DNA of 64,000 bases from a virus. The DNA is taken from positions 43,081-107,080 of the IMG/VR virus record IMGVR_UViG_3300047470_000212, one strand, 5' to 3'. The translations under genes and the position numbers were made by a program. Below, piece after piece: positions 171 through 63,474 of this stretch. The notes under the pieces were generated by a model, which searched no databases, was not told the origin of the DNA, and saw only the letters and a list, made by a program, of their open reading frames with translations. Each line of letters begins with the position of its first letter. The stretch's first letter is position 1.

Positions 171-2149
171 TACTTAGCCTCACTCCAGCGGTCAACGATT
201 TTCACGTCCGACGACAGCGGCACCTTGAGCAGTTTCTGGATGTCCTCGCCGAGCATGGCTTCCCGAACAAGGTCGGCGGCCTCTTCGGCGCGGTCCTCCG
301 GAGCGAGGACGACGAGTTCGTCGTGCACCGAAAGGATCAGGCGGATTTCGTTCGGCAGGGAGTTGTTCAGCCGGATCATCGCCAACTTGATCAGGTCGGC
401 TGCGCTTCCCTGGATCAGGCTGTTGACTGCCTGGCGCTCGGCGCCCATTCGCAGGCCGTTGTTCTGCGAGAGCATGAGCGGCAGGCGACGCTTGCGGCCG
501 AGCAGCGTGCGGATGTACGGAGGTCGCCGCGACCGGCAGACCTGGATGACCCTTTCCTTGAAGGCGTAGATCTCCGGGAACAACTTCTGGTGCATCTCCA
601 TGAAGCGCTTGGCTTCCTTGACGGAGATCTTCGCCATGCTGGCGACCTTGTCCGGGCCAGCGCCGTAGACCACGGCAAAGTTGATGCCCTTTGCGACCTG
701 CCGGAAGTCGATACACGTACGGTCGCCGCTCTTTACCCGCGCCATGAATTCCTGCGGGTCCACGCCCATAAGCGCGGCAGCGGTGGCCGAGTGAGGGTCG
801 ACGCCGTTGTGGAATCCCTTGTAGAGATCGCCTCGACCGATGAAGTGCGCGAGCACCACGAGTTCGATCTGCCCGTAGTCCGCGACGACCAGTTTGTATC
901 CGGCCGGTGCGACGAACAGGCCACGGATTCGCTTACCGAGGTCCGTGTCCGGGCGCGGGATGTTCTGGAGGTTGGGTTCCCGGCAGGAGAATCGTCCGGT
1001 CACCGTTCCGTACTGGACGAAGTCGGCGTGGATCCTGCCGTCGAAGATGCGGCACGGCTTCTTCGGGTCGTCCTCGATACCGAGGTAGGACAGCGGGTAG
1101 TCGAGCAGCTTGCTGACTTCCGCGTACTCCAGCAGTTTCTTGACGACCGCGTTGTTCTCGTGCTTCTCCAGGCTGTCGGCGTCGGTGGAGTAGTCCTTCC
1201 ACTCCAGCTCCTGCCCTGCCTCGCGCTTCTTCTTTCCGCCGTCGGTCGGCTTGGTGGGGCGCAGGCCCTGGCCGCCGTCCTTCTTGGGGGCGTACAGGAC
1301 TGCGGCCTTCTGGGCCGGGGCGTTGAGGTTGAACTGCTGTCCGGCAGCGCGGTAGATGTCGGCCTCGATCTCGACCAGGCGGGCGCTCATGTCGCGCACC
1401 AGCTCCTGCATGGCCATCTGGTCGACAGGTGCTCCGGTGATGCCCATGTCGAGCAGCACGCCGAGGACGTCCTCTTCCAGGCGCCGGACGTTGATCAGGC
1501 CCTGGTCGTGGATGCGCTTCTGGAACTTTTTCCAGAGGAGCCAGGTGTACTTGGCGTCCATGTACGCGTAGTGCGCGACCTTGCCGAAGGGGTGGGCCTC
1601 GACGCACTTGCCGACGTTCTCGGTGTCGTAGTCGACCTTGTAGTACTTCTTGACGAGTTCCTTGAGGCCCTTCTGCTTGAGGTTTTCGTCGAGGAGCCAC
1701 TGGAGGACGATCGTGTCGCTGTACTGCGGGGGTGCGATCTCGCCCCAGTACTTCGCCGTGGAGATGAGGTCGAAGGTCGCGTTGTGCGCGATCTTGATCT
1801 TGTCCTCGGCGAAGAACAGCGGCTTGAGGATGGAGAACACCTCGCTCGGGAGCATCTGCTCCGGCGGGGCGTCGTAGACAGCCGGGATGGCGTCGAACTT
1901 CCCGGTGATCTTGTTCTTCTTCTTCGTGGCCTTGCTCAGCAGGACGTCGCCGTTGGGGTGGCCGAACGGGATGGCCACAGCCATGCCGTCGGTGGCAAGG
2001 CTCATCCAGTTGGCGACGTTCTGCGTCGGGACGTTCCGGTTGGGGCCGAAGGTCTCGATGTCGAAGGAGAAGGCCGGGCGCTCCATGAAGCGCTCGACCA
2101 CGGTATGAAGTCGGTCGGGGGTGAGGATGACGCTGTTCCTGATGGTCAC
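170..2149 (-). CDS. DNA polymerase family A with 3'-5' exonuclease, no 5'-3' exonuclease
   Basis: Exo motifs DIET, HNATFD, YAYMD; pol motifs ADYGQIEL, KGINFAVVYG, VHDEL; GTG start with GGAGG RBS. Confidence 0.95.
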   Translation of the reverse strand: MTIRNSVILTPDRLHTVVERFMERPAFSFDIETFGPNRNVPTQNVANWMSLATDGMAVAIPFGHPNGDVLLSKATKKKNKITGKFDAIPAVYDAPPEQMLPSEVFSILKPLFFAEDKIKIAHNATFDLISTAKYWGEIAPPQYSDTIVLQWLLDENLKQKGLKELVKKYYKVDYDTENVGKCVEAHPFGKVAHYAYMDAKYTWLLWKKFQKRIHDQGLINVRRLEEDVLGVLLDMGITGAPVDQMAMQELVRDMSARLVEIEADIYRAAGQQFNLNAPAQKAAVLYAPKKDGGQGLRPTKPTDGGKKKREAGQELEWKDYSTDADSLEKHENNAVVKKLLEYAEVSKLLDYPLSYLGIEDDPKKPCRIFDGRIHADFVQYGTVTGRFSCREPNLQNIPRPDTDLGKRIRGLFVAPAGYKLVVADYGQIELVVLAHFIGRGDLYKGFHNGVDPHSATAAALMGVDPQEFMARVKSGDRTCIDFRQVAKGINFAVVYGAGPDKVASMAKISVKEAKRFMEMHQKLFPEIYAFKERVIQVCRSRRPPYIRTLLGRKRRLPLMLSQNNGLRMGAERQAVNSLIQGSAADLIKLAMIRLNNSLPNEIRLILSVHDELVVLAPEDRAEEAADLVREAMLGEDIQKLLKVPLSSDVKIVDRWSEAK

Positions 2150-2232
2150 GTGCGGTACCTCCTGGTGGTGTGGTGGGAAGCTGAGGGGGAGGCCCCGGCA
2201 GCTAGGTGCCAGAACCTCCCCCGGGAGGCTGA

Positions 2233-3042
2233 TCAGTCGTTCAGGATCTCGCGGGCGATCTGCTTGAGTTCGTTCCGCGTGTTGACGTGCAGGACGTCCT
2301 CGTCGTAGGCCTTGGAGTCGAACTCCTCCAGGTCCTCCTCGGTCAGCGGGTCGATGTCCCAGTCGTCGAGGAGGTCCCGCTCCTTGACCGGGGTGATGTA
2401 GTACGTGGTCTTGTTGTTCTTGCTCTGCTTGGAGACGCTGAAGTACAGGTCGTCCCGGTTGATCGGGGCGGTCTTCTTGTCCTTGGAGTAGTTCTTGAGG
2501 ATGTCGGCGACCATCGGACCGAACTGCCACACCTTGATGACCGGGTCCTCGGGGTCGGTGAAGTCGACGACGTTGAACGCAATCTGCTGGGACGGCTTGT
2601 CACCCGCGTCATCGCACAGCGGGCAGCGGCTCTCCAGGCACGTCCAGGACCGCTTGCCCTTGCGCTCGATCCAGTGCTGGAGGAAGACCAGGAACGGCTC
2701 CTCGTCCAGGATCTTCACCACCACGGCCTCGTTGGTGACCTTGAAGTTCTCCGGGAAGCCGGACGTGGCGGACTTGGTCTTCTCGTAGGAACCCCAGCCC
2801 TTGCCACCGACCTTCGGCGCAGGCTCGTTGTCCTCCTCGTCGTCCTCCTCGGAGGCGCGGCGCGAGCGGCGGGAGGCGGGGGCCTCCTCGGTATGAAGCG
2901 ACTCGCGGCGCGAGCGGCGAGAGCCCCGGGCCGGGCGCTCGGTCTCCTCCTCGGCGTAGCCGTGCTCCTCCTGCTCGTCGTCGGCGGGGGTGTAGGCCTC
3001 GGTCGCGGCAGCGGTACGGCGGCGGGTCAGAGTGCGGGGCAT
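2233..3042 (-). CDS. Probable single-stranded DNA-binding protein (gp32-like)
   Basis: H..C..CPLC zinc motif, acidic C-terminal part, next to polymerase. Confidence 0.6.
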   Translation of the reverse strand: MPRTLTRRRTAAATEAYTPADDEQEEHGYAEEETERPARGSRRSRRESLHTEEAPASRRSRRASEEDDEEDNEPAPKVGGKGWGSYEKTKSATSGFPENFKVTNEAVVVKILDEEPFLVFLQHWIERKGKRSWTCLESRCPLCDDAGDKPSQQIAFNVVDFTDPEDPVIKVWQFGPMVADILKNYSKDKKTAPINRDDLYFSVSKQSKNNKTTYYITPVKERDLLDDWDIDPLTEEDLEEFDSKAYDEDVLHVNTRNELKQIAREILND

Positions 3043-3281: not shown

Positions 3282-3742
3282 TGCTCGGCCAGCCTCTTGA
3301 AGAGGTCGATGACGCGGGCGGTGAACTGGGTGCCCTTGATGGGCTTCTGGTGCGAGACCAGAACGCCCTCCTCGTGCGCGATGCGGACGATGCCCTCGAC
3401 CTGCTCGCGGGTGTAGAGGCGGCGACGGCCGCGCGGGTCGTCGTCCTTGCCCGGGGACTGGAAGGTGGACTTGGGAATGACTCCCTCCCTCTCCCACTTG
3501 CGGATGGTCACCGGCTGACGGCTCAGTGCCTTGGCGAGTTGACCGAGGGTGAAGAACTCAGTCTCCACACCGCCCACCGTGTACTTCCGGGGCTTGTGGT
3601 CCCAGTCGGCCGCCGACGTGGCGGCCTTGGTATGAAGCCCGTTGCGGTTGTGGTGGCGGACGATCGGCTTGGTGGACCCGGGGTAGAAGGCTTCCCCGAT
3701 CTCCGCGAAGTCCTGCTCGATGCTGGCGAGTGCAGTGCTCAT
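3278..3742 (-). CDS. MerR-type HTH DNA-binding protein
   Basis: FTLGQLAKALSRQPVTIRKWEREGVIP...RRLYTREQV. Confidence 0.75.
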   Translation of the reverse strand: MSTALASIEQDFAEIGEAFYPGSTKPIVRHHNRNGLHTKAATSAADWDHKPRKYTVGGVETEFFTLGQLAKALSRQPVTIRKWEREGVIPKSTFQSPGKDDDPRGRRRLYTREQVEGIVRIAHEEGVLVSHQKPIKGTQFTARVIDLFKRLAEQ

Positions 3743-4310: not shown

Positions 4311-4317
4311 TTCCTAA

Positions 4318-4671
4318 TTACGGCTTCTTCGGATCCATTCGAACCGTGCGCCGGGCCGCGTAGGCGCGGGCGTCGTCGTCCAACTGATCCATGCGGACTT
4401 CAGTCTCGGCCACGTCCTGGTAGACGGTGACCACGCGGTGGTCGGCCGGGTCGACGATGGCGACGATGTCCCCTCGTACGTGGCGCCACTGTCCGGGGAC
4501 GCGGGCCGAGGGGTAGGTATGAAGCGGCTTGTCGGCCGCGAGGAGAACATCCTCGCTGGTCCAGCCCTTGGCGGCGGCCTGCTTCTGCGCGTGGTAGGTC
4601 AGCCGGTACTCCGGCGACTCGGTGGCGGGAGCGGTCCAGGTGATGCCCAGAGCTTCGGCGATGGTGGCCAT
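4318..4671 (-). CDS. DUF4258-like (RelE-like fold) protein
   Basis: LTYHAQKQAAAKGWTSEDV...IVAIVD...RVVTVY pattern; own promoter and RBS. Confidence 0.55.
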   Translation of the reverse strand: MATIAEALGITWTAPATESPEYRLTYHAQKQAAAKGWTSEDVLLAADKPLHTYPSARVPGQWRHVRGDIVAIVDPADHRVVTVYQDVAETEVRMDQLDDDARAYAARRTVRMDPKKP

Positions 4672-6618: not shown

Positions 6619-6905
6619 TGGGAGTACTGCCGATCGAACTGCCTGCTGGTGCGCGGGCGCCGGGCGAAGGGGACGCCGGGGGTGTAGTGCCCCTCCTGGA
6701 TGTGGTCCGGGTTGGCGCACATCCGTCGCGTGCACGCGCGGTGCTTCTGGCTGCCGCCTCCGGTGATGAAGGACAGCAGGCTCTGGCCCTTGTAGGTGGG
6801 CCGGGTCGCGGTGGACTGGAAGATCAGGCAGTCGGTGTCCGGGTCCGGCTGGACGCGGTCCCAGAAGGCCTGTCCCAGGTGTTCGTAGCCATCAGGCGGA
6901 AGCAT
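6612..6905 (-). CDS. Degenerate HNH-endonuclease-like zinc protein
   Basis: FWDRV..DCLIF...HRACTRRMCANPDHI; GGAGG RBS. Confidence 0.55.
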   Translation of the reverse strand: MLPPDGYEHLGQAFWDRVQPDPDTDCLIFQSTATRPTYKGQSLLSFITGGGSQKHRACTRRMCANPDHIQEGHYTPGVPFARRPRTSRQFDRQYSQC

Positions 6906-6951
6906 TGGCGGCCTCCGCCCAGGTATGAAGCCGGTTGTTCATGGGGTGCAT
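6892..6951 (-). CDS. 19-aa mini-ORF MHPMNNRLHTWAEAANASA carrying CTT-CAT-ACC in frame
   Basis: ATG overlaps primase stop (TGATG); ORF overlaps start of next gene. Confidence 0.5.
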   Translation of the reverse strand: MHPMNNRLHTWAEAANASA

Positions 6952-7919
6952 CAGAACCTCGCTATGACGGATGAGTAGGCGTTGCGGACGGCGTTCTTGA
7001 GGGCGTCGGCCCCCATGTCGCCGGGGTCCTTGCAGGGGGTGCCGGAGTAGTCCAGGAACTTCAGGGACAGGCCTCGGCCGGTCCACTCCTCGCGCAGCCG
7101 CTTGCACGTCTCGGCTCCTGCGGTGTCGTTGTCGAGCGCGATGATCACGGAGTCGAAGTGGTCCCGGATCAGGGACATCTGGGCGTCGGAGACTCCGGCG
7201 CCGAAGGAGGCGAGACCGGCCTTGAAACCGCAGGCCCGGAGCCGGACGACGTCCAGAGGAGACTCAACCAGGATGGCCGTGTCGTCCTCGTAGGTATGAA
7301 GTCCGAAGAGGGTCTTCGACTTGGCCATGCCCGGCGGCCGGTTGCGGAAATAGCGCTCGTTCTTCTCCTGCCAGCCCCACAGCATTCCCGTGTCGGGGTC
7401 GCGGACCGGGATGATCCACATCTCCCGCTCGGTGTCCCACAGCACGCCGCAGGCTTCCGCGTCCTCCGGCATGAAGAACCGCTCGGCGCAGGGGGTCAGC
7501 GGCGGGGTGACGTACAGGGCCAGGCTGGCCTCGTTGATCTGCTTGGTCGTGTCGACCGTCTTGGGGTCAGCCTTCTTCGCCAGGAACTTCTTGACCCGCT
7601 CGATCCCGCCCCGCTGCCGGACCCAGGCGACCGCGTCCCCGTACGGGAGGTCGAGCATGTCCTTTACGAGGACCACGAAAGGGCCCTGGTAGCGGCAGGA
7701 GAAGCAGTTGAAATACCCAGCGTCGTAGTTTATGGAAAAGGATGGGTGCTTGTCTTTCTTTCCGGTCCGCGCCTCATGCATCGGGCACGGCATGTGAATC
7801 TCGTCGCCGCTGACCTTGTAATCCAGGCCAATCTCATCCAGGCAGGCGGTGACGTTGCCGGGAACCGGAGTTCCTACTGCGTCCCAGCCGCGCGCCTTAG
7901 AACGAACCCTGGTAGCCAT
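6951..7919 (-). CDS. DNA primase (CHC2 zinc finger plus TOPRIM)
   Basis: CPMH...PSFS...CFSC; VESPLD, ALDNDTAG, KDPGD. Confidence 0.9.
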   Translation of the reverse strand: MATRVRSKARGWDAVGTPVPGNVTACLDEIGLDYKVSGDEIHMPCPMHEARTGKKDKHPSFSINYDAGYFNCFSCRYQGPFVVLVKDMLDLPYGDAVAWVRQRGGIERVKKFLAKKADPKTVDTTKQINEASLALYVTPPLTPCAERFFMPEDAEACGVLWDTEREMWIIPVRDPDTGMLWGWQEKNERYFRNRPPGMAKSKTLFGLHTYEDDTAILVESPLDVVRLRACGFKAGLASFGAGVSDAQMSLIRDHFDSVIIALDNDTAGAETCKRLREEWTGRGLSLKFLDYSGTPCKDPGDMGADALKNAVRNAYSSVIARF

Positions 7920-9162
7920 CAGTGTTCTCCTCCTCCATGGCGAAAGGATCCTCGTTCAGTTCCTCGAACTTTCCCGTCTCCCAATCCCACTGGCAGTAGG
8001 TCTCCAGAGGCGGGCAGTTACGGGCCAGGACGACCTTGATCTTGTTGATGTTCGAGTCATCCGTGGACTCGACACCGAGAATGACGTCGGAGTCCTGGGC
8101 GAAGGAGGACGAATATCCGATGGAGTCGGAGGTAATGCCCTTCTTCTTGTTCATCTTCCATTCCAGGACCTGCGTGGAAATGACGATCGGGAGTTGCAGG
8201 TTCTTCGCCATGCGCTTGAATCCTCGGGTGAGGTTGGTAAGCGCCTGGCTGGATCCCTGAGCCTCGCCGAGTTCGTCCTGCATCATGTAGATGCCGTCCA
8301 CGAATACGATCGTCGGCCGAATGGCATCGATCTTCGACTGCACACCGGTAAGCGTGGTCGCATTCATGGAGTCCGAGGAAAGGAAGAACGAGGGCATAGC
8401 CTCAAGTTCCCGAAGGGCCCTTTCGAGTTTGTCCCACTCGGTCTTCTTGAGCGTTCCGTTCCGCAGCCGGGCATGGGAAATCCCCGCGCGGATTGCGTCG
8501 AAGCGTTCCTCCTGCTCCTCGTTGCTCATCTCGAAGCCGATGAACAGCGGGCGCTCACCGTGCAGGTGGGCAGCCATGGCGGCCAGCAGAAGCAGCGTCG
8601 ACTTACCAGCCTTCGGAGGGCCGACGAAGGTGACCAACTGCTCCTTCTGGAGGCCCTGGGTGGCCCTGTCGATCGTGTTGAAGCCGGTGGGGATACCCCG
8701 GAGCCCGTCGGGCAGGTCCTTGAGCGTGAGGTACCGCGCAAGGCGTTCCTGGCCCGTCTCCGTCAGGTCGGTGTCGCGGGCGTTGGGTACCGCCGAGGCG
8801 ATGTTGGCCAGCGTGCGGGCCAACGCCTCCATCGCGGCGGTGGCGTTGCCCTCTTCGTGTGCGTCGACCGAGTCGGCCAGGCCCTGCTCCAGCAGGGCCA
8901 AAGTATGAAGTTCTCGCAGCCGGTCGGTCAGCACTTCCATGCTGTCCTCGACCTTGACGAACCGGTACGTGGGGAAGTCGGTCTTGATCGTGGTGAGGCT
9001 CGGGACCTCGCCGTAGTTCCCCTTGTGCCGCAGGATCGCCTTGAAGACGGACTTGTTGTCCGGGTCTCCGAAGAAGTCGGGGGTGATGCCCGCGTCCGCG
9101 ACGACAGCCAGGTCCTTGTCCTGGATGACGCGGGACACGAGCAAGCGCTCGAAGTCCGCCAC
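7897..9162 (-). CDS. DnaB-like replicative helicase
   Basis: GIPTGF, GPPKAGKS, FEMS, IVFVDG, QDSD. Confidence 0.92.
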   Translation of the reverse strand: MADFERLLVSRVIQDKDLAVVADAGITPDFFGDPDNKSVFKAILRHKGNYGEVPSLTTIKTDFPTYRFVKVEDSMEVLTDRLRELHTLALLEQGLADSVDAHEEGNATAAMEALARTLANIASAVPNARDTDLTETGQERLARYLTLKDLPDGLRGIPTGFNTIDRATQGLQKEQLVTFVGPPKAGKSTLLLLAAMAAHLHGERPLFIGFEMSNEEQEERFDAIRAGISHARLRNGTLKKTEWDKLERALRELEAMPSFFLSSDSMNATTLTGVQSKIDAIRPTIVFVDGIYMMQDELGEAQGSSQALTNLTRGFKRMAKNLQLPIVISTQVLEWKMNKKKGITSDSIGYSSSFAQDSDVILGVESTDDSNINKIKVVLARNCPPLETYCQWDWETGKFEELNEDPFAMEEENTDGYQGSF

Positions 9163-9605
9163 TACATTGCTCCGATCAGGGTGGTGGGTACGGCCGGGAG
9201 CATGCGTCCCTTGCTGCCGTAGATCAGGTGGTTCTCGTTGTCGAAGACGGCCGCTACGTCAGGCATGTGGGCCAGGCGGCGGGCCAGCTTCTTGGGGTCC
9301 TCGCACCACACGCGGCCGATGGGCAGGCCCTCGATGTCCAGGCGCCATTCCAGGGCCTCGGCGAACTCGTCACCCAGGTACGTGATGACGTCGACCGAGT
9401 AGCGGTAGCGCCAGACCGTGTCCCAGATGACGTGGGCCAGCGGCTCGTTGATCTCGTAGGCCTTCACAGCGCGCTTCCACTGGTGCGCCCGGCGGGCCAC
9501 TGCTTCACCAGCTCGGGCTCGCGCGGTGGGCAGGTTGCCCAGCAGTCCTTCGAAGACCAGGACCATGCGCGGGGAGACCTCGTTGCTTATGTCCCCGCCC
9601 TGCAT
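9162..9605 (-). CDS. Hypothetical protein
   Basis: Start and stop overlap both neighbours. Confidence 0.65.
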   Translation of the reverse strand: MQGGDISNEVSPRMVLVFEGLLGNLPTARARAGEAVARRAHQWKRAVKAYEINEPLAHVIWDTVWRYRYSVDVITYLGDEFAEALEWRLDIEGLPIGRVWCEDPKKLARRLAHMPDVAAVFDNENHLIYGSKGRMLPAVPTTLIGAM

Positions 9606-9850
9606 CAGGCTCGCTCCGCTTCGGCGCGGAGCCAGATATGAAGTCGTCCGTGCCGGAGTTCTGTGATCACACGGTGCTCGCGCACGCGGAATCCGAGGGC
9701 GGCAGCCTTGTAGACCGCGAGGAAGAGCAGCCGCTTGGCGGTCGCACGCTGCTCGGGGAACCGTCCGGTGATCGTCGCCGGGATCTCGTCCTTGTAGAGA
9801 ACCGACAAGACCTCGTCCTCGAAGGGGAGGACCATCTGCTCATGCGGCAC
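9605..9850 (-). CDS. Hypothetical protein
   Basis: GTG start with GGAGGA RBS; TGATG overlap downstream. Confidence 0.6.
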   Translation of the reverse strand: MPHEQMVLPFEDEVLSVLYKDEIPATITGRFPEQRATAKRLLFLAVYKAAALGFRVREHRVITELRHGRLHIWLRAEAERA

Positions 9851-10499
9851 GGCGATCTCCTCCGACGACGGTGATGTGGGTGAAGGCGCCCTGGATGAAG
9901 GAGCCCATCGAGGGGTTGTATGTGTCCCCCCACTTGCTCGGCGGGACGTTGGAGGTGACGAGGGTCGGCCGGGCCTCGCGGTGTCGAAGGCGCAGCAGGT
10001 CGTCCAGCAGGCCTTCGGCGTAGCCGGACTTGGTCTTGTGCTCCTTGCCGACGTCGTCGAGGAGGAGGACGGGCGCCTTCTCGGCCGCGACGATCTTGTC
10101 CGTGATCTCCCACCAGCGGGCAACGGCCTCGGGCTCGTGCCGGTCCTGGAGACCCATCCGCTCGATGGACAACTTCACGTAGTCCGAGTAGGCCAGCCAC
10201 GCCACGGGCAGGCGGCGGCCGAAGTAGACCTCCAGCAGCGTGGACGTGGCGAGCGTGGTCTTGCCTGTGCCGGGCGGCCCTACGACCAGCAGCCCCTTGC
10301 CGATGGTGCTCCAGTCGGCCGGGTACTCGTTCAGGGGGCGCTTGTCCGTGACGTAGTGGTCCCGGAGGTTGTCCACGAACTCCTGGCAGACGGCCTTGTG
10401 CGGCGAGTCCGCCAACGTATGAAGACGCAGGTGCTTGTAGTGCGCCGGGATGCCGTACTCCTTGAGCCGCAAGGCGTGGACCCGGGGGTCAGTCGCCAT
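9840..10499 (-). CDS. DnaC/IstB-like ATPase (helicase loader)
   Basis: GPPGTGKT, LLLDDVGKE, TLVTSN; between initiator and DnaB. Confidence 0.88.
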   Translation of the reverse strand: MATDPRVHALRLKEYGIPAHYKHLRLHTLADSPHKAVCQEFVDNLRDHYVTDKRPLNEYPADWSTIGKGLLVVGPPGTGKTTLATSTLLEVYFGRRLPVAWLAYSDYVKLSIERMGLQDRHEPEAVARWWEITDKIVAAEKAPVLLLDDVGKEHKTKSGYAEGLLDDLLRLRHREARPTLVTSNVPPSKWGDTYNPSMGSFIQGAFTHITVVGGDRRAA

Positions 10500-10622: not shown

Positions 10623-11690
10623 TCAGGACCAGTAGTCCTCGTTGAACCTGTTGTTCTCCACCTCGTCGACCTTGTCAGCCTTGCCCAGTCGCTGGGTCAG
10701 CAGCCCACGGGCGGCAAGGAAGTCCTTCCAGGCGACCACGTTGTCCGAGCGCTGCCAGGAGGTGGACCAGTAGGTGATGATCATCTGGCGTACCTCTTCG
10801 CGCCCAAGGCCCTGGGCCATCCACCGGCCGAAGGTCCCAGTCAGGGCTCCGAGGTTGGTGGAGCCGGGGACCGGGTGACCTACTTCCCCGGCCCGGTGGT
10901 CGAAGAATTCCGCCAGTTCCTCCGAAGGCCTCTTGGAGCGCTTCTTAGGAGTTCGCCGGGCCGGAGGGGCCAGGTCGCCATCCGAAGCCGGGAGACGGGC
11001 GGCCAGGGACTCTCCTGGATCACCGTCACCGATGGCCTGGGATACCACGTAGGCCGGATCGAGTTCCCGCTCGGCCTGCTCCTGCTCCAAGGCCTCCTGC
11101 TTCCGGGACTTCCTCTTGCCGCCAGGACCCCGGAGGGGGCGTACCGCATTCCAGCCCTTGGCTCCCGGCCTGGGAGTCTCCTCGGCATCGTAGAGATCCG
11201 ACCGCGCCGACTGGCGCGGTGGAAGAGACGTAGTCTCTTCTATTTCTCTAGTAGTACTAGTTAGGTAGTTAGGGGTTGGGTGCACTCCAGTGCAGGGTGC
11301 AATATTTGCAGGGTCCTCTGGAGTTGTTATGTCACAACTACCTTCGTCGACCCCTGCATTATTTGCAGGTGTAGTTCTTGCACCCTTCTCGGGCTCCGGA
11401 ATCCACTCTTCGATGGGGAGAATCCGGCGCACAGCGGACTTGTACCGCAGGGACTCCAGAGGCCTCTCCTCGTCGGAAACGGACTCGATGATGCGACGCT
11501 CCTCCAGGTCCCGCAGGACGTTGTAGGTCTGCCGCTCCTTGATGTTGGCCTTGCTGGCGATGGTTGGTACTGAAAGCCAGCACATCCGGAAGTCGTCATC
11601 CGCTGCGTCGGCCATGGCCAGCAGGACCAGTCGGGATGCAAGTCGGGTGTGCTTGCTCCGCATCACCTCGCCCATGATGATTACGCTCAC
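10623..11690 (-). CDS. Replication initiator with N-terminal winged HTH
   Basis: RLVLLAMADAAD...CWLSVPTIASKANIKERQTYNVLRDLEE; precedes DnaC/DnaB. Confidence 0.75.
   Translation of the reverse strand: MSVIIMGEVMRSKHTRLASRLVLLAMADAADDDFRMCWLSVPTIASKANIKERQTYNVLRDLEERRIIESVSDEERPLESLRYKSAVRRILPIEEWIPEPEKGARTTPANNAGVDEGSCDITTPEDPANIAPCTGVHPTPNYLTSTTREIEETTSLPPRQSARSDLYDAEETPRPGAKGWNAVRPLRGPGGKRKSRKQEALEQEQAERELDPAYVVSQAIGDGDPGESLAARLPASDGDLAPPARRTPKKRSKRPSEELAEFFDHRAGEVGHPVPGSTNLGALTGTFGRWMAQGLGREEVRQMIITYWSTSWQRSDNVVAWKDFLAARGLLTQRLGKADKVDEVENNRFNEDYWS
11230..11385. promoter_or_regulatory. Putative replication origin inside the initiator gene
   Basis: Repeated TGCA-based units (TGCAATATTTGCAGG, TGCATTATTTGCAGG) next to an AT-rich tract. 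Confidence 0.55.
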
Positions 11691-11734
11691 TCGGCGACTC
11701 CGAGGAAGCGATAAGTATGAAGCGATAGCGTCAT
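11687..11734 (-). CDS. 15-aa leader ORF MTLSLHTYRFLGVAE carrying CTT-CAT-ACT in frame
   Basis: Stop overlaps initiator start (GTGA). Confidence 0.55.
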   Translation of the reverse strand: MTLSLHTYRFLGVAE

Positions 11735-13489: not shown

Positions 13490-14020
13490 TCAGACCGACC
13501 TCGGGCCGAGGGGAGACTGCGGGAGCGCCTGGGTGGTGATGGTCTCCTGGGCGACCAGGGCTGGCTTGACCGCACGCTGGAGCGCAGCGTGCAGGGCGAC
13601 GGCGATCTGCTCGATGGCCTCGGGACTCAGGGTGGCGCCGCTGACCTGCGCCGGGGGCTCGACTGCCTCCGTCTCCTCGACGTACTTGGCCAAGGTGGCG
13701 GGCGATATATGAAGCCGGTTCTCGGTCTCGGTGATCAGGGCGTTCTGGAGCCAGCCGAACCACGCGTACTTCTTGAGCAGCGAGTGGTAGAAGGCGGTGC
13801 CGGTCACCCAGGCGAGGAAGGACGCGACGACGGCCGGGGCCCAGTAGAAGTGCTGGGGGTGGGCCTGGTAGACGGCCCAGAAGCCCGTGGCGACCGCGAG
13901 GACGGCATGCGCGGCACCCTTGACCGTGGCGTTGGTCGACGGCCGGGTGAACAGCGCGACGATGGCTGGCAGGGCCAGGCCGACGACGAGGGAAGCCGCG
14001 TCGGCGTAGTTGGTGAGCAT
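13490..14020 (-). CDS. Holin-like membrane protein
   Basis: Three N-terminal TM segments, at end of tail operon. Confidence 0.6.
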   Translation of the reverse strand: MLTNYADAASLVVGLALPAIVALFTRPSTNATVKGAAHAVLAVATGFWAVYQAHPQHFYWAPAVVASFLAWVTGTAFYHSLLKKYAWFGWLQNALITETENRLHISPATLAKYVEETEAVEPPAQVSGATLSPEAIEQIAVALHAALQRAVKPALVAQETITTQALPQSPLGPRSV

Positions 14021-45107: not shown

Positions 45108-45266
45108 ATGGAAACCAACGCGCTTCATACCTCGGGGCTCACCGAGCCCCAGAGCAACATGACCGTCAGCCTGACGAACAACCGCATGGAGGACAGCCGC
45201 TGGAACCGACTCCTCACCATCCTCTTCACCCCGCAGGACGAGGACGCCCAGGCAGCCACCGCCTAG
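45108..45266 (+). CDS. 52-aa ORF upstream of serine recombinase, with CTT-CAT-ACC at codons 6-8
   Basis: METNALHTSG...; otherwise strongly C/G-ending codons. Confidence 0.6.
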   Translation: METNALHTSGLTEPQSNMTVSLTNNRMEDSRWNRLLTILFTPQDEDAQAATA

Positions 45267-50330: not shown

Positions 50331-50573
50331 TTAGATATGAAGACCGGCCTTCTTAAGCTGATTCTTGGCCTTGATCCAGCCAGGGGTCGCTCCGGTTAGC
50401 CCGCTGATGCAGACCGTGTTCCCCTTTGGGTCGACCCACCGGATGTGGTTTCCTCCGGTGACTGTCACCGTCCATTTGTCCTTTCGCGCCTTCTTTACGA
50501 CCTTCTCGATCTCCTTGTCGGCTCCGAGTCGGCCAGAGCTGCTGCTGGCCACTGGTGCACCCTTGCGGGCCAT
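50331..50573 (-). CDS. HicA-like RNase-fold protein, no adjacent HicB
   Basis: WTVTVTGGNHIRWVDPKG...LKKAGL; GGAGG RBS. Confidence 0.65.
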   Translation of the reverse strand: MARKGAPVASSSSGRLGADKEIEKVVKKARKDKWTVTVTGGNHIRWVDPKGNTVCISGLTGATPGWIKAKNQLKKAGLHI

Positions 50574-54756: not shown

Positions 54757-55263
54757 CTACAGCCACTCTCCGGTCAGGGCGCCGTGGACGTCGGCTTCCC
54801 GGTAGGTATCCGGCTTGAGGATCTTGCCGTCCTCGCGGCGGATGACCTGGCCGTCGACCACCTTGCTCATGTTCGAGCGGTGGACCTCTCTGAAGACGGC
54901 CTCCAGGGGGATCTCCAGGAGGTCGGCGGTGCCGTAGACGACGTACAGGACGTCGGCCAGTTCCTTGGCCAGGGCCGCGTACCGGTACGGCGCCTCAACG
55001 GTGTGCAGGCCGGTGATGGTGGCGGCCGGGTTGGCCTCGAAGTAGTCGTCCATGATCTGCGTCTTGCGGTAGTTCAGAAGGGCCTCCAGGGCCTCCTGGA
55101 CCTCCTCGGCGATGAGGGTGGACCGCAGGGAAATCAGGTCGTCCCGGGCGGCCTCGTCACGCTCGATGAAGGGCTTCTCCCCCACCGCCTGGTGCCACTG
55201 TCTGACGGCTTCCATGGGGCGGTGGGGCTGGGTATGAAGCAGGGTGCGCGGGGTGTTCGTCAC
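54757..55263 (-). CDS. MazG-like nucleotide pyrophosphohydrolase
   Basis: LIAEEVQE, KELADVLYV, EVHRSNMSK, DGKILKP. Confidence 0.88.
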   Translation of the reverse strand: MTNTPRTLLHTQPHRPMEAVRQWHQAVGEKPFIERDEAARDDLISLRSTLIAEEVQEALEALLNYRKTQIMDDYFEANPAATITGLHTVEAPYRYAALAKELADVLYVVYGTADLLEIPLEAVFREVHRSNMSKVVDGQVIRREDGKILKPDTYREADVHGALTGEWL

Positions 55264-55274: not shown

Positions 55275-55751
55275 TCACGCGGGGAGGATGAGGTCCAGGT
55301 CCACCGGCCGGACGTTCTGCGGCAGGCGGTTGTCGTCGAAGAGGTGGACTCCGGCGCGCTCGTAGGCCAGGTCGACCAACTGCGAGCAGATGAGCCGGTC
55401 CTGCCGCTGGATGCGACGGTCCACCCACCCGATGGAGATGTGGAACCGCTTGAGGGCCAGCGCCAGGATGTCCAGCCAGCCGTACGGAGTACCTACCAGG
55501 GAAACCGCGTTCGCCCAGATCTGCTCCCGGGTGGCTTCCGGGAGCGAGGTATGAAGGTTGAAGCGGGCGTTGGGGTACTGCCTGATGTCGCCGAAGGCCG
55601 CGCCCGAGGGGTTGGCCTCGACGATGAGCCCGCCGGGGCCGACGATGAAGGCGTGGTTCACGCGACCGCCGGTGAACTTGCGTATGACCCAGCCCGCGAA
55701 GCCGCCGGTCGCGGTGACGCCGAAGGAGCCGATCGGAGGAGTGTCAGGCAT
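55275..55751 (-). CDS. Permuted papain-like (YiiX/NlpC) amidase
   Basis: NHAFIV..EA; GTPYGW; ICSQLVDLAY. Confidence 0.8.
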   Translation of the reverse strand: MPDTPPIGSFGVTATGGFAGWVIRKFTGGRVNHAFIVGPGGLIVEANPSGAAFGDIRQYPNARFNLHTSLPEATREQIWANAVSLVGTPYGWLDILALALKRFHISIGWVDRRIQRQDRLICSQLVDLAYERAGVHLFDDNRLPQNVRPVDLDLILPA

Positions 55752-56010
55752 TCTGGCCGTCCTCCTTGTCCTTCTTGTCCTTCTTGGCCGACCAGGCGCT
55801 CAGTTCGTCGTACCAGGCGAGGTAGTCGCCGTAGCCGCCCTTGCGTCCGCCGAAGGAGAACGGGTTCAGGCCGTAGCGGATCGGGCCGTAGGGCCAGCCC
55901 TCGTCGTCCCGCTCGACCACGGTGGTGACGGTCTTGGAGAACTCGCTCCAGTTGCCGTCCTTGTCCTTCTCGCTGTGGACCACGGTGGTCGTTGTCGTCC
56001 TACGCGACAC
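55744..56010 (-). CDS. Hypothetical protein
   Basis: Overlapping operon gene. Confidence 0.6.
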   Translation of the reverse strand: MSRRTTTTTVVHSEKDKDGNWSEFSKTVTTVVERDDEGWPYGPIRYGLNPFSFGGRKGGYGDYLAWYDELSAWSAKKDKKDKEDGQNA

Positions 56011-56194
56011 TGTCTTCCTCCAGGTTGTACTTGCCGTAGAAGTCGATGTGCAGGGAGTCGTTGTTCTCCGCGCGGTCCAGCCAGCGTTTGGCGAAGACCT
56101 CGCGGGAGTAGAAGAGAGTCCTGGCGGCCCAGGTGCCGTCCTTGTTGATCAGCACCCGGACCTTCCAGAGGTGGTTGTCCCTAGCCGTCCGCAC
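56000..56194 (-). CDS. Hypothetical protein
   Basis: Overlapping operon gene. Confidence 0.55.
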   Translation of the reverse strand: MRTARDNHLWKVRVLINKDGTWAARTLFYSREVFAKRWLDRAENNDSLHIDFYGKYNLEEDSVA

Positions 56195-56501
56195 GCGCAG
56201 CCCCTCCGGGCAAGATATGAAGCGCGCCGGGCTGGCCGAGGTCCATGAACGGCTCGGCGATCTGGACGGCGACCTGCGTGAAGGCTTCGCCGATCTGCTC
56301 CTGCAAGCCGCCCAGTCCCTGCAACTGGTCGGCCAACTCCAGCAGGGTGCCGACGATGTCCTTGATCGCGACGTAGTACTCGCCGCTGTCGTCGTCCCGC
56401 ATGAAGCGGTAGGTGGCCTCGTGCTCGGACGTGGTCTCGGTGAGGATGCTCAAGGGGTTCTCCAGGGTGGTGGTGCCATCAGAGCCAGATGCGGTGCTCA
56501 C
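56181..56501 (-). CDS. Hypothetical protein
   Basis: Overlapping operon gene. Confidence 0.6.
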   Translation of the reverse strand: MSTASGSDGTTTLENPLSILTETTSEHEATYRFMRDDDSGEYYVAIKDIVGTLLELADQLQGLGGLQEQIGEAFTQVAVQIAEPFMDLGQPGALHILPGGAARADG

Positions 56502-57720
56502 TGGTAACGCGTCCCTTCTCGGGGTGGATGAAGTGCAGGCGCTGGGAGGGGTCTCCCGTGGCCGCGACGAACTCGTGGGCGTAGATGTTGTCCGACTCCG
56601 GCGAGCCGGTCATGAAGACCGAGCCGCCGTTGGCCATCTGCAACTGCATGGCCTGGTGGTAGTGGCCGATGTACAGGTCGCGGAAGGAAGGCAGGACGCC
56701 GGAGGCCCACTGGTTGGCCTTGCGGAGGATGCCGTAGGCCGGGATGTTGCCGCCGAAACTCTTGATCTCGTCGCCGTGGATCGCCATCGCGGAGTAGTTG
56801 CCGATGGTGAAATGCTGGTACCAGTCCCCCGACGTCTGGAACTTCGTCAGCCGGGGCTCGTGGGCCAGGCGCTGCTTCACGATGTTGTAGACCATGCGGT
56901 CCACGTTGTCCGAGGCCTTGATGCCGTCGCCCTTGCGGCCGAGCCTGCCATGGTTGCCGTACTCGGCGACAACCTCGACCGTCTCGTAGGTATGAAGCGC
57001 CTGCGTGATCGTCCAGATCATCAGGTCGGCGACGTCAAACATCTGCTCGTACAACGTGCCATCCAACTCCCAGACCTGGCCGGGGAAGATGGAGACGCCT
57101 TCGACCATGTCTCCGGTGAACAGCAGCACGCCGTGCTTGACCGGGTGGTCGGCCCGCTGGATGTCGGTGATCTCGGCGGCCTTCTCGACGTACTTCTCGA
57201 TCCGCCTGTGCATGATCTCGCGGTCGTACGTCTCGGTCCGCTTGCCGCCCTGCCAGTCGGTGAGGTGCCACAGGGCTACCTCGGTCGGCTTCATGCGGGT
57301 GTCAGCGATGGGCGGAGTGACGTCGCGCTGGCCGACGTACTGGGCGGCATCCGTGGCCGCGCGGTAGACGGCTTCGATGTACTCGTCGCCGCGCGCCTTG
57401 GCCTTCTTGTAGGCCGCGAACAGACGGCGGTTGTCAGCCTCCAGGGAAGCGATGCGCTCCTCCTGGCCGACCTCCTCCGTGTCCTCGGCCACTGCCTCCG
57501 GATCGCCCTGCTCGGGCTCGGTATGAAGCGTCTTGCGGCCGGGCTCGACCAGGATGGCCCGCTTGTACTCGTTGGCCTTGCGCCAGCGCCGGACGGCGGT
57601 CTCGGACGTCTCGACGCCGTTGAAGACGAGGTCGTCGGCAGCGGCCTGGTGGCCGACGTTCGGGTCCATGAGGATCTGCTGGACCCACTCGACGTCGATC
57701 ATGTCCTGAAGCGTGCTCAA
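56479..57720 (-). CDS. Calcineurin-like metallophosphoesterase with N-terminal extension
   Basis: TDWQ, GDMVEG, GNHG, HGD, GHYH; TTG start with GAGG RBS. Confidence 0.85.
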   Translation of the reverse strand: MSTLQDMIDVEWVQQILMDPNVGHQAAADDLVFNGVETSETAVRRWRKANEYKRAILVEPGRKTLHTEPEQGDPEAVAEDTEEVGQEERIASLEADNRRLFAAYKKAKARGDEYIEAVYRAATDAAQYVGQRDVTPPIADTRMKPTEVALWHLTDWQGGKRTETYDREIMHRRIEKYVEKAAEITDIQRADHPVKHGVLLFTGDMVEGVSIFPGQVWELDGTLYEQMFDVADLMIWTITQALHTYETVEVVAEYGNHGRLGRKGDGIKASDNVDRMVYNIVKQRLAHEPRLTKFQTSGDWYQHFTIGNYSAMAIHGDEIKSFGGNIPAYGILRKANQWASGVLPSFRDLYIGHYHQAMQLQMANGGSVFMTGSPESDNIYAHEFVAATGDPSQRLHFIHPEKGRVTSEHRIWL

Positions 57721-58368: not shown

Positions 58369-58662
58369 ATGTTCTGGTCCTGCGAGATCTGCAACGACTG
58401 GGGGGTCGCCGACAACGAGGTCGACCTCGTGGTGGACCGCCAACGGCACAAGGACACCCACGAGTTCCCGGGCACGACAGAGCCCCAGCAGGAGTCCGTG
58501 GAGGAGGATGAGGACACTGTCCTCGGCGCCAATTACCTGGCGTGGGGTATCACGGCCCTGCTGGGGCTACTGTCTGCTCACTGGCACGCGCTGGTGGGGG
58601 TAGTCCCCCTGGCGGGCCTGCTCGCCTTCGTCCTGACCTTCCGGCCGAACGACAAAGGGTGA
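58369..58662 (+). CDS. Small zinc-finger/membrane protein
   Basis: CEIC...H..H; two TM segments; AGGAGG RBS. Confidence 0.65.
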   Translation: MFWSCEICNDWGVADNEVDLVVDRQRHKDTHEFPGTTEPQQESVEEDEDTVLGANYLAWGITALLGLLSAHWHALVGVVPLAGLLAFVLTFRPNDKG

Positions 58663-58743
58663 ACGAAGGGGGTCGAACCCTCACGCCCCTCTCGGGACAC
58701 CGGGGTCACAGCCCGGCGCGGCTACCTTTTCGCCACGTTCACC
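58658..58743 (-). tRNA. tRNA-His(GTG) with G-1:C73 and an atypical long variable arm
   Basis: Acceptor GTGAACG/CGTTCAC, anticodon arm CCGGG-CTGTGAC-CCCGG, variable stem GTCCC-GAGA-GGGGC, T arm GAGGG-TTCGACC-CCCTT. Confidence 0.85.
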
Positions 58744-59100: not shown

Positions 59101-59204
59101 TCTGTGCCCTTCTTGCTGAACGTTAACCCGGCTGGTTATCGCGGAGCCGGAAGCGCGGGCGGATGAGTTTATACGGATGGACTAAGTACGCCATTCAGTC
59201 CGCG

Positions 59205-59277
59205 CTCCCCGACCTGGACTCGAACCAGGAACCAACGGATTAACAGTCCGTTGCTCTGCCAATTGAGCTATCGGGGA
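59205..59277 (-). tRNA. tRNA-Asn(GTT)
   Basis: Canonical cloverleaf, anticodon loop CTGTTAA. Confidence 0.95.
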
Positions 59278-59422: not shown

Positions 59423-59914
59423 CTACTTCACGGTGTAGCGACCGTAGTAAACGGACTTCGTCCAGGGCTTGTAGTAGTTGACTCCCTTACCGGGCCGCTC
59501 GGTTTCCAGCCAGGTGTGGGAATTGACGTAGATACCGACGTGGTAGACGTAGCCGTGGGAGTCGTGCGCGAAGACGAGGTCCCCGGTCTTGGGGGTCTTG
59601 ACGTGCACGCTCTTGCGGTACTGGTCGTTGGCGACCCGGGGGATGCTCTTCCCGAGGCGCTTGAATGTGTACTGGGTGAATCCAGAGCAGTCGAAACCTC
59701 TGGACGGTGAGGAACCTCCCCACACGTACCGGACGCCTATGTATTTGGCGCCCTGCTTCACGATTTTCGTTCCGGACGACGTCGTGGTGGTGGCGTGGGC
59801 CGGGGCCGAGACGTTCGTGGAGGCGGCCGGGGTATTTGCCTGCGCGCTTGATGTAGCGAGCGGGGAAATAGCCAGGGCGCCAGCGAGCAGAAGTCCAGCG
59901 ATGCTCTTATTCAT
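59423..59914 (-). CDS. Secreted NlpC/P60 peptidoglycan endopeptidase
   Basis: Signal peptide MNKSIAGLLLAG..AQA; YVWGG, FDCSG, HVGIY. Confidence 0.92.
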   Translation of the reverse strand: MNKSIAGLLLAGALAISPLATSSAQANTPAASTNVSAPAHATTTTSSGTKIVKQGAKYIGVRYVWGGSSPSRGFDCSGFTQYTFKRLGKSIPRVANDQYRKSVHVKTPKTGDLVFAHDSHGYVYHVGIYVNSHTWLETERPGKGVNYYKPWTKSVYYGRYTVK

Positions 59915-59928
59915 GACAGCACTCCGCA

Positions 59929-60052
59929 CGCCTGCGAGATTAGGTGACGGGCTCGGGATAAGTGCCTTTCCCTACCACAAATGACTCTGCGGATTCGCCC
60001 CAAAAGATTCGGTCTCCCGCCCCTGTTCAGGGTTGAGTTCAGGATTTGTCCA
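59929..60052 (-). ncRNA. c-di-AMP (ydaO/yuaA)-like riboswitch
   Basis: AATCC..GGGAGACC..TTTGGGGCGAATC..GTAGGG..CCCGAGCCCGTCACCTAATCTCGCAGGC directly before RBS of a cell-wall hydrolase. Confidence 0.75.
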
Positions 60053-60152: not shown

Positions 60153-60157
60153 GGGAG

Positions 60158-62062: not shown

Positions 62063-62556
62063 TGTCGTTACGTAACCCCTCCTACCGGACGCACGCAGGC
62101 CGATGTAGCTGGGGACGCGCCTGCGTGCGTGATCTTCACGTGAGGCTGGTGTTTCAGCGGATCACACAGGCGCAGATAGGCCGAAACCCGTACGAGCAGC
62201 AGGGCTGCACGGGTGTGTGATCTGTGGGGAACCAGTGAACGGAACGTATCACCGAGGGGTCGTTTCGACTACGGCTGTCCAGGCTTCCGCAACGCGGTTG
62301 CTTTACTTTTCAAGGGCCCACATGGGCATCTCTTTGCCTTACGGAGCACAACTCATGACCATTACCGCTGGTTACCGCCGGGTGGCCAGAGTGTGAAGGT
62401 TTCGTCAAGGTGGCGTAAGTCACAGCCACGTTTCTGTCGCTTGACCGAAATCTGGACGCCAGTTGTCAAGCTATCACCGTGCAGAACTTGACCCCGCCAC
62501 GGGATGCCGTAACGGGGTCGTATGTCAATTACTTTGCCTATGAGGCAAGTATGAGG

Positions 62557-63474
62557 TTAGAAGTCGCCCGGGGCAACCTGAAGGCAGGTCAGGCCGAGGT
62601 TGTTCCGCCACATATCGACGACCTGGTTGCGGTCGTCGAGCACGAAGCGGACGTTGTAGAACGGCTCGACCTTCCCTCGGTAGATCTCTTCCTTCACGAT
62701 GGCGTCCCTGCGGTTGTCACCGGCCGCCCGCATGTACAGGAACGCCTCCCGGGTCCACTTCCCCACGTGACGCTCCAGCCAGGCGCGCGTCTGCTCGTAG
62801 CAGGAGCCATCCCGGCCGGACAGGAACACGATCTCCACGCCCGAGTCGTCGAGGGTGTTTACCAGGTTCACGACATCCCTGATCGGCTCGTCCTCGCCGA
62901 CCTTGTCCCAGTCGAAGGGACCGCGCGAGACCATCTTGGCCAGCGTGCCGTCGATGTCGACCAGGACCGCGTCCTTAAGGGACGGGTCGTACTCAGGAGG
63001 CGCCACACGAGGCCGCAGGTACGTGTCGTACATCCGCTGGATGACCTTCTCTCCCACGCTCCGCTCGCGCAGCAGGTCGCGCTTGATGCAGGTCCGCAGC
63101 GGCACGTCAGTGAAGTCCTTGACGACGAACTGCACCCCGTAGTGCTCCGCGATGTCCCGCAGGTTCTTCTCGTGGACCGGGTTGAAGTTGGTGTCGTCCA
63201 CGATCACGCTGATGCCACGCACCAGCCAGGTATGAAGCAGCGCGTCCCGAGTCCGTACGACCTGCCGCTCGTTCTTTCCGTGCCAGCGCTCCGCGTGCAG
63301 CATCGCCCGCAGGTCGTCCTTGTTGATGCGGATCAGGGTGCCGGGGGCGGCCTTGAGGACCTGCTCCTTGGCCCAGGTGCTCTTGCCCGAGCCGGGCAGG
63401 CCCTTGGTCATGGTCAGGGTGGTGGTCACAGGCTTCTCCTTGGGTCCGCAGCGGTTGCACTTGAGGTAGGTCAT
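62557..63474 (-). CDS. Polynucleotide kinase/3'-phosphatase (T4 PseT-like); alternative start 63429
   Basis: GLPGSGKST, DDTN, DIDGT, SGR, DDR. Confidence 0.92.
   Translation of the reverse strand: MTYLKCNRCGPKEKPVTTTLTMTKGLPGSGKSTWAKEQVLKAAPGTLIRINKDDLRAMLHAERWHGKNERQVVRTRDALLHTWLVRGISVIVDDTNFNPVHEKNLRDIAEHYGVQFVVKDFTDVPLRTCIKRDLLRERSVGEKVIQRMYDTYLRPRVAPPEYDPSLKDAVLVDIDGTLAKMVSRGPFDWDKVGEDEPIRDVVNLVNTLDDSGVEIVFLSGRDGSCYEQTRAWLERHVGKWTREAFLYMRAAGDNRRDAIVKEEIYRGKVEPFYNVRFVLDDRNQVVDMWRNNLGLTCLQVAPGDF

Follow-up and report, generated by a model that had tools for sequence, protein, structure and literature searches.

A gene-sense motif with an adjacent hairpin, switched by one base between sister phages of Streptomyces

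How does one short sequence come to recur in dozens of genes of a phage, in the sense of the gene and in a single reading frame, and what reads it? The question was raised by a stretch of 64,000 nucleotides (nt) from IMG/VR record IMGVR_UViG_3300047470_000212, called the window here, which covers bases 43,081-107,080 of a 107,080-bp phage genome. A preliminary description had listed 27 copies of CTTCATAY in the window and had proposed that the ribosome reads them. We found that the motif is one half of a composite unit, (R)CTTMATAYC followed by two nucleotides and a GC-rich hairpin, about 31 nt in total, in which the 9-mer is free of G. Our tentative answer is that the unit acts as a single-stranded element of the sense strand, most probably in mRNA, and is read by a phage factor of switchable specificity. 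The hairpin, a sister variant of the motif and the genes that co-vary with it were new in this analysis, and no described family with a motif-plus-hairpin architecture was found. Rfam gave no match at the motif sites, and a full-text search for the 8-mers returned only primers in unrelated papers.

Copies, frame and hairpin

The phage genome has a G+C content of 64.6% and carries nearly all of its genes on the minus strand. The 27 copies of CTTCATAY were recovered at their reported positions, 26 on the minus strand and one on the plus strand (45123), against a mean of 0.56 and a maximum of 5 in dinucleotide shuffles of the window. The whole genome held 47 copies (46 minus, 1 plus), and CTTCATAY was its top over-represented 8-mer. 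All 47 lay on the gene strand, as the preliminary description had held for orientation. Genes were called with our own simple procedure (codon log-odds, greedy choice). All 41 copies inside called genes were read as CTT CAT AYN, which bore out the claim of a single frame, and the remaining 6 of the 47 lay in short open reading frames (ORFs) or boundary stretches. Frame 0 was not favoured by chance, because codon frequencies predicted 0.06, 0.23 and 0.03 copies in the three frames. In relatives, 189 distinct copies were in frame 0 of the best local coding frame, and the other 22 gene-strand copies were all at gene boundaries or between genes. Thus, out-of-frame gene-strand copies within clear coding sequence numbered zero, relatives included. 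Two opposite-strand copies of CTTCATAT, antisense to a gene, look like chance.

The motif accounted for much of the use of its own codons. Of 86 CAT and 160 CTT codons, 41 of each kind were part of it. LH[TI] tripeptides were observed 47 times against 6.2 expected, and 40 of the 47 were spelt CTT CAT. The extended consensus R-CTTCATAYC-nnG given earlier was reproduced: the motif is longer than the 8-mer by an R on the left, where C is avoided, and by a C at position 9. The recognition length is then 10-11 nt, with base -1 and the common Thr codon ACC included. Genes for capsid, portal, terminase, sheath and tube, identified by PHROGs, had zero copies, as had been noted. The statement that copies often lie near gene starts was moderately true, in that 28% of copies were within 60 nt of a called start compared with 16% of random places. 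Tolerance of protein termini to change could be the cause of this enrichment. These results agreed with a sense-oriented, selected frame-0 signal that is common to many lytic genes and looks like one regulon.

Folding was calculated downstream of each copy. The minimum free energy of the segment +9 to +49 after the motif was -14.8 kcal/mol, compared with -9.9 kcal/mol in in-gene controls. The excess was significant in this genome (p=1.4e-11) and in two replicate relatives that are ~75-85% identical to it in DNA (G001, p=8e-8; G008, p=2e-7). Upstream of the motif, no signal of fold stability was seen. With the 9-mer held unpaired, the first stem started at +11 in 22 of 46 copies and between +9 and +12 in 37 of 46. 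Stems had a median of 7 bp and loops of 3-7 nt, and the stem sequence was arbitrary, varying from copy to copy. All 12 window copies tested against shuffles had negative z-scores, the lowest being -3.5. An intrinsic terminator was ruled out, with a T fraction of 0.154 in the 12 nt past the stem and 0.156 genome-wide. RNA-specific tetraloops (GNRA, UNCG) were not in excess in the hairpins.

The copies in the window were as follows (window coordinates; an element is the 9-mer with its hairpin).

2072-2110, minus strand: element with 9-mer CTTCATACC, DNA polymerase codons 14-16; its orthologue is CTTAATACC in relatives of the AAT type described below
2872-2898, minus strand: element in a 269-aa gene
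3608-3637, minus strand: element in a MerR-like 154-aa gene
4470-4524, minus strand: element found in the CAT type only; AAT genomes have CAG-CAC-ACC
6894-6930, minus strand: element in a mini-ORF led by a Shine-Dalgarno (SD) sequence, with its stop overlapping the next ATG, upstream of the SNF2 helicase side
7256-7301, minus strand: element found in the CAT type only, inside the primase gene; AAT genomes have CTG-CAC-ACC
8880-8910, minus strand: element found in the CAT type only, in a DnaB-like helicase gene
9611-9643, minus strand: element 12 codons ahead of a stop, with the GGAG of the next gene within the hairpin
10383-10424, minus strand: element in a DnaC/IstB-like ATPase gene
11684-11722, minus strand: element in a 15-codon leader ORF that ends in a TGA overlapping the next gene's GTG
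12108-12132, minus strand: element in a 409-aa gene
13665-13714, minus strand: element, CTTCATATA variant
23964-23996, minus strand: element in the gene of a 1452-aa tail protein
26704-26729, minus strand: element in a 28-codon bridging ORF past the tape measure gene
26888-26911, minus strand: element near the C-terminus of a tape-measure-like 997-aa gene
30718-30744, minus strand: element at codons 5-7 of a baseplate-hub-like gene after the tube gene
34821-34863, minus strand: element in a 271-aa gene
38160-38186, minus strand: element at codons 3-5 of a 286-aa gene preceding the major head gene
45123-45150, plus strand: sole plus-strand element, codons 6-8 of the first ORF of a reversed operon, with a 7-bp hairpin at +11
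48048-48095, minus strand: motif copy with an atypical distant hairpin, in an uncalled stretch
50335-50343, minus strand: motif copy without a hairpin, in the last codons of the HicA-like gene
55184-55239, minus strand: element at codons 9-11 of a MazG-like gene, with the hairpin from +16
55523-55556, minus strand: element in a 158-aa gene
56167-56222, minus strand: element near the end of a 106-aa gene
56942-56997, minus strand: element in a 407-aa gene
57505-57528, minus strand: element in the 407-aa gene
63208-63237, minus strand: element in the polynucleotide kinase-phosphatase gene

The reversed operon was informative for orientation. Five genomes carried it (four complete, one partial), with ~33-46 forward copies and exactly one reversed copy each. 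The reversed copy was always sense, stood in the first ORF of that operon, 6-15 codons from its start, and had its hairpin at +11. Since it is sense in the reversed ORF in all five genomes, orientation follows the gene. An antisense transcript over the reversed copy, acting as a guide RNA, was considered, but no promoter evidence was found. Copies were unevenly distributed: a motif-free block of 15-18.7 kb was kept in all four complete genomes, and there were two further motif-free gaps of ~10 kb. A tyrosine integrase gene (43922-44998, minus strand) adjoins a divergent gene for a 694-aa large serine recombinase (45389-47473, plus strand). The latter has a DUF4096 transposase-like tail, is poorly conserved among relatives and may be part of an inserted element.

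Two motif types in sister phages

Relatives were collected by searching IMG/VR with the polymerase, which gave about 40 at 86-99% amino-acid identity. They fell into two classes, genomes with CTTCATAY only (CAT type) and genomes with CTTAATAY only (AAT type). Sister phages whose polymerase is ~90% identical had zero CTTCATAC and carried CTTAATAC (Leu-Asn-Thr) at the same places, and CTTAATAC was the top 8-mer of AAT-type genomes. Both motif types occurred at about 0.7 copies/kb on the gene strand, all-or-none per genome and essentially never mixed. The more distant relatives scanned (L042, L043, L106 and BRock) were a Nonomuraea prophage, the Streptomyces phage BRock and two contigs from IMG/VR at ~50% identity. 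No k-mer-plus-hairpin signal of any kind was found in them, and the positive control of the scan worked.

Nine genomes were aligned, which gave 82 orthologous site clusters. In 33 of them the site was common to both types by descent, with a C/A flip at motif base 4, so that in 33 proteins a position occupied by His in one lineage was occupied by Asn in the other. A further 13 of the 82 clusters were CAT-only; in these, AAT genomes mostly had CTG/CAG-CAC-ACC, keeping His as CAC. In the 11 AAT-only clusters, CAT genomes mostly had CTG-AAC-ACC, keeping Asn as AAC. Several clusters were private to one genome. For example, a motif was present in this genome where the other eight all had CTG-CAC-ACC. 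The alignments thus show sites being gained continually at pre-existing Leu-His/Asn-Thr by largely synonymous substitutions. The nucleotides, and not the peptide, are selected; the earlier remark that the peptide alone is not the signal was right, with sites derived from CTG-CAC-ACC via synonymous changes.

At orthologous places the hairpin was stronger with the motif than without it (-14.0 vs -11.5, p=2e-15, the pairs not being independent). RNAalifold on the orthologous hairpins gave only 16 compensatory pairs in 30 clusters, and orthologous stems had often been replaced instead of co-varying. The units are not a mobile repeat of the REP or RPE type, as the stems differ and sites arise by substitution at orthologous places without insertions or deletions. 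REP/RAYT and Rickettsia RPE elements are similar in being in-frame hairpin elements of protein genes, mostly in one orientation. However, they are copies of one repeat with similar stems that spread by insertion, whereas the stems here are unrelated and point substitutions occur in place at Leu-His-Thr or Leu-Asn-Thr.

Only a few sites with one mismatch were found in the motif-free gaps, including two CTT-CAG-ACC sites in the sheath gene (31437 and 32331, minus strand), each with a hairpin kept at +9/+10. For at least one of the two, the orthologous place in the G001 sheath gene (AAT type) holds a CTTAATACC site. Both look like sites that decayed after the type switch, with Asn changed to Gln rather than His. 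Another site concerned the Streptomyces prophage described below (L105; G011:C18:136147-136176). This prophage and the AAT-type G001 have two elements ~20 nt apart, and in the prophage, which is of the CAT type, one of the pair remains CTTAATACC. Such mixed sites are rare, and this one is possibly a relic of the switch.

The pattern of many oriented sites with a lineage-specific consensus resembles stoperators, of which 20-30 oriented sites occur, with a consensus that differs between heteroimmune relatives (PMC6550527, PMC9283540). Stoperators of temperate mycobacteriophages may be seen as the closest analogue in logic. Like those of L5 and Bxb1, the sites here belong to temperate actinobacteriophages, number 20-50, are asymmetric and lie in one orientation over lytic genes. 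The consensus differs between related phages in both cases. That of stoperators co-evolves with a phage-encoded reader; for our phages, three co-varying genes are candidates for such a reader. A duplex mechanism of this kind would have an immunity repressor bind an asymmetric 9-11-bp site and block the elongating RNA polymerase, with the variants marking heteroimmune groups. The phage is temperate, and it has dozens of asymmetric, transcription-oriented sites with a lineage-specific consensus, as in Cluster A (PMC6550527, PMC9283540). Nevertheless, we regard duplex sites as highly improbable. Stoperators are 13-bp duplex sites, mostly intergenic, without a hairpin or a relation to frame; in contrast, most sites here are intragenic and in one frame, with the hairpin at a fixed 2 nt. 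A hairpin of arbitrary sequence at that distance would be useless to a duplex-binding repressor, and no helix-turn-helix (HTH) protein that co-varies with type was found; the MerR-like gene does not. Because the adjacent hairpin is obligatory, a single-stranded target is favoured over a duplex.

Genes that co-vary with the motif type

Since one base flips in all copies between sister phages, a sequence-specific reader acting in trans is needed. About 25 genes around the polymerase were screened in about 25 genomes for co-variation with the motif type. The primase stood out in this screen, and two small genes elsewhere in the genome co-varied as well; the neighbours of the three did not.

50331-50573, minus strand: HicA-like RNase gene (80 aa), candidate reader
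56000-56194, minus strand: gene of a 64-aa protein, fold without a clear match
6951-7919, minus strand: DnaG-type primase gene (CHC2 zinc ribbon plus Toprim)

The HicA-like protein was at least 65% identical among 13 CAT loci; in 11 AAT loci the identity was at most 41% and there was a 14-aa insert. The gene adjoining it was 94% identical across types. The AlphaFold2 (AF2) model had an alpha-beta-beta-beta-alpha order with a core pLDDT of about 80, and GGNH was invariant. The HicA-like protein is the best candidate reader, as a fold of the double-stranded RNA-binding domain (dsRBD) kind together with a nuclease-type His would suit a stem with a single-stranded 5' flank. For the 64-aa protein, identity was 78% or more among CAT-type versions and 55% or less between these and the AAT ones. 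The type split of these two genes was even sharper than that of the primase. Searches of the PDB by sequence gave no match for either protein, and for the 64-aa protein no clear fold match was found. A 147-aa gene (9162-9605) and a resolvase-like gene were also tried; their association with type in 9 genomes was gone with about 25.

In the case of the primase, 28 of 314 alignment columns discriminated the types, compared with a single column each in RecA and the DnaB gene that overlaps the primase gene, and 0 in the polymerase. All AAT primases fell into a single clade (100% support, stem 0.21). L011 and L014 were in this clade too, although by polymerase they group with the CAT type. The primase gave rise to an alternative at the level of DNA, which we consider quite unlikely. 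The hairpin would keep single-strand binding protein (SSB) off the lagging-strand template, and primase would start Okazaki fragments at the adjacent 9-mer. The displaced or lagging template would be the coding strand of co-directional genes, and the motif variant would track primase specificity. The discriminating columns, the primase clade, the zinc ribbon and Toprim of the protein and the one-strand spacing of roughly 1-2 kb are consistent with priming, as is the precedent of hairpin-dependent primase signals in phage G4 (PMC6783573). As in G4, a hairpin stands beside a short single-stranded recognition sequence and the primase is of the DnaG type; here it also co-varies with the motif. However, G4 has a single origin, with the CTG and the start site on the 3' side of its three hairpins (PMC6783573), whereas here the motif is 5' of one hairpin and occurs 47 times, and large stretches of the genome lack it. 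The 15-18.7-kb block and the two ~10-kb gaps would be left unprimed, and degenerate sites, few in number, do not fill them. Enrichment of discriminating residues in the zinc domain was not significant (p=0.07-0.10). The reversed copy follows gene direction, although a divergent origin could also explain this. DnaG primases normally need only a trinucleotide, which also counts against priming.

Exact 126-127-bp terminal repeats were observed in three assemblies (G000, G006 and G008), and IMG/VR labels G006 and G008 as DTR. The repeats look like k-mer overlaps of circular assemblies, not true direct terminal repeats. Genome ends and the direction of replication could therefore not be placed.

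Two tRNA genes bear on the decoding of the middle codon of the motif.

58657-58742, minus strand: tRNA-His(GUG), with a 14-nt variable arm like a class II tRNA, and with G-1 and C73 (His identity marks)
59204-59277, minus strand: tRNA-Asn(GUU), in all relatives of both types

The tRNA-His occurred in this genome, G006, G007 and G009, which form one CAT subclade only. It was absent from the complete CAT-type G008 and from every AAT genome. A role of tRNA-His as decoder, switch or specificity factor was ruled out by this distribution. A tRNA-dependent signal of the bldA-TTA type, as the preliminary description had suggested, did not hold up, for neither tRNA tracks motif type. The tRNA-Asn, with tRNA-His in one subclade, would ease decoding of the middle codon. 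The tRNA-His does suggest that this decoding is of consequence to the phage, the simplest explanation being that a cost is relieved. In G006, the tRNA-His lies 1 nt from the tRNA-Asn.

A full-length c-di-AMP riboswitch of the ydaO type was observed inside the phage tRNA region (59915-60049, minus strand; 71.9 bits vs a gathering score of 38), directly upstream of the ORF 59423-59929. It is an unusual phage-borne copy of a host second-messenger sensor. The polynucleotide kinase-phosphatase gene (62557-63483, minus strand) encodes a kinase domain and a HAD_PNKP phosphatase domain, and a short ORF (63770-63982) had a weak match to an RNA-ligase family (E=0.007). The kinase-phosphatase, the ligase-like ORF and the phage tRNAs hint at a tRNA-repair module against host anticodon nucleases.

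The host is Streptomyces, as Streptomyces sp. NPDC002088 holds a CAT-type prophage with 95% polymerase identity. The prophage and an integrase gene showed that the phage is temperate. Roughly 32 copies were found in the host outside the prophage, mostly antisense GGT-ATG-AAG (Gly-Met-Lys) in host genes and with no consistent hairpin at +11. A host-wide use of the motif, like that of Chi, was rejected on these grounds. The 24 sequencing runs linked to the phage were apparently all DNA from rhizosphere metagenomes.

The reading frame and the probable reader

The preliminary description had argued that the frame lock means that the ribosome reads the signal. The lock does not show this by itself, as blocked alternative frames and shared descent account for part of it. 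In the case of CTTAATAC, one alternative frame holds TAA and the other needs TTA plus ATA. Among 30,973 codons, TTA was used once, ATA 38 times and TCA 37 times. The AAT variant is thus forced into frame 0 by coding alone, owing to TAA and the rare TTA in the other frames. The frame was passed into the CAT variant because the sites are shared by descent in 33 of the 82 clusters. In the CAT variant itself, the other frames may be disfavoured because they would put the A-ending ATA or TCA right before a stable hairpin. By wobble rules ATA and TCA are read by minor tRNAs, and CTT and CAT/AAT are read by major G34 tRNAs. We concluded that the frame lock is largely, though not provably wholly, a by-product of coding. 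Even a frame lock without exceptions is thus no proof of reading by the ribosome, since it can be imposed by stop codons and rare codons in the alternative frames.

If the element is read in mRNA, a phage-encoded factor would bind or cut the 9-mer, which the stem presents on its immediate 5' side. Middle and late lytic transcripts would thereby be braked genome-wide, or processed. The reader would have changed its preference at base 4 (C or A) between the sister lineages, with every site following suit. Such a system would correspond, at the level of RNA, to the stoperators of temperate mycobacteriophages or to the RegB sites of T4. The lambda nut site (boxA plus boxB) is a single-stranded box followed by a hairpin, present about twice per genome, untranslated and with a conserved loop. 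T4 RegB has many phage mRNAs as substrates and cleaves them at a 4-nt sequence, the GGAG of Shine-Dalgarno regions. Both are sense-strand RNA signals read by a phage protein, as we infer for the element. They differ from it in that here the 9-mer is the specific part and the stem is arbitrary.

Several observations weigh against an mRNA element that is read by a phage factor. All CAT-only clusters, 13 aligned and 17 unaligned, were in frame 0, lineage-private gains included. Five copies of CTTCATCC (TTC-ATC), one synonymous step from an out-of-frame motif, had stayed unconverted; the frame lock may be more than a by-product. All intergenic copies lay in SD-led mini-ORFs with stops overlapping the next start. 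As to RNA or single-stranded DNA, stems were mostly Watson-Crick with the same G-U share as in controls, and the sense strand outfolded the antisense strand in only two of three genomes. A replication origin at the divergence point could give the same pattern of orientation. Motif type and clade were partly confounded, and the primase also co-varied with type. The HicA Pfam score was 17.8 bits vs a cut-off of 27 (E=0.004). The top Foldseek matches were weak (E 0.07-0.3) and included the HicA chain of 6g26 and 1whz, which we take to be a HicA-family protein, its entry title being hypothetical protein.

Part of this evidence points to the ribosome, which we consider a possible but unlikely reader. 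CUU would be in the P site, CAU/AAU in the A site and the hairpin at the mRNA entrance, and the pause would control the gene or a coupled downstream gene. Stalling, A-site cleavage and +1 slippage on CUU-N are possible variants. The hairpin spacing fits CUU in the P site: the hairpin started 12 nt from the first base of CTT, which is 4 nt past CTTMATA in most copies, and a ribosome with CUU in the P site would meet structure at a 12-nt distance. The frame lock was absolute, even in private gains of the CAT type whose other frames are unblocked. The first 10 codons were enriched for copies, and phage tRNAs matched the middle codon in its two forms, with tRNA-Asn in every genome and tRNA-His gained by a CAT subclade. 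The intergenic mini-ORFs were coupled to recA, to the gene downstream of 11687-11734 and to others, with the SD of the next gene inside the hairpin. At recA (genome 40194-40223, ~2.9 kb before the window; loci L056-L101), the gene start was remodelled. RecA itself includes the copy, as codons 3-5, in the AAT type. A frameshift in the CAT type has instead left a 10-codon leader (MRLHTYGGPC) with its TGA overlapping the TTG start of recA.

However, the 10-11 nt of specificity take in base -1 as well as ACC, which is the Thr codon used most. A C/A switch that is all-or-none requires a reader acting in trans, and a complete CAT genome is without tRNA-His. The frame of the A variant is forced anyway by TAA and TTA. 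The idea of +1 slippage in the preliminary description was not borne out, as first-stop distances in the +1 and +2 frames matched in-gene controls in three genomes. The A-site codon after a +1 slip would be the rare AUA. Products of +1 or -1 frameshifting were rejected, the shifted frames having neither a designed stop nor an open frame. CUU was followed by rare CAU or AAU in frame, and X XXY YYZ was absent. Among known recoding signals are frameshift heptamers with a hairpin, the CUU-type +1 sites of prfB and Ty1, and the bacterial SECIS; CUU is the classic +1 shifty P-site codon. The element is like these in having a short in-frame sequence and then a stem-loop at a fixed short distance within an ORF. 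Unlike them, it has ~47 sites and not one, no X XXY YYZ and no conserved alternative-frame product or stop, and one of its bases switches genome-wide between relatives. A ribosomal pause accounts best for the frame, the mini-ORFs and the distance of the hairpin; it does not account for a specificity of 10-11 nt or for the type switch. If the ribosome were nevertheless the reader, the element would be a phage-wide programmed pause gating dozens of lytic genes and their coupled neighbours, with a variable middle codon tuned to host or phage tRNA supply.

We return to the phage-encoded factor as the preferred reader. If the element is a phage-wide control site, dozens of genes would be under one switch that is written into coding sequence, hairpin included. 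This would come at a measurable cost to proteins, 33 of which have His in one lineage and Asn in the other. The all-or-none switch between sister phages of the same rhizosphere samples is a clean natural experiment in which a reader co-evolves with ~45 targets, and it resembles the evolution of immunity specificity. The system is directly testable, as a cultured Streptomyces strain carries a CAT-type prophage.

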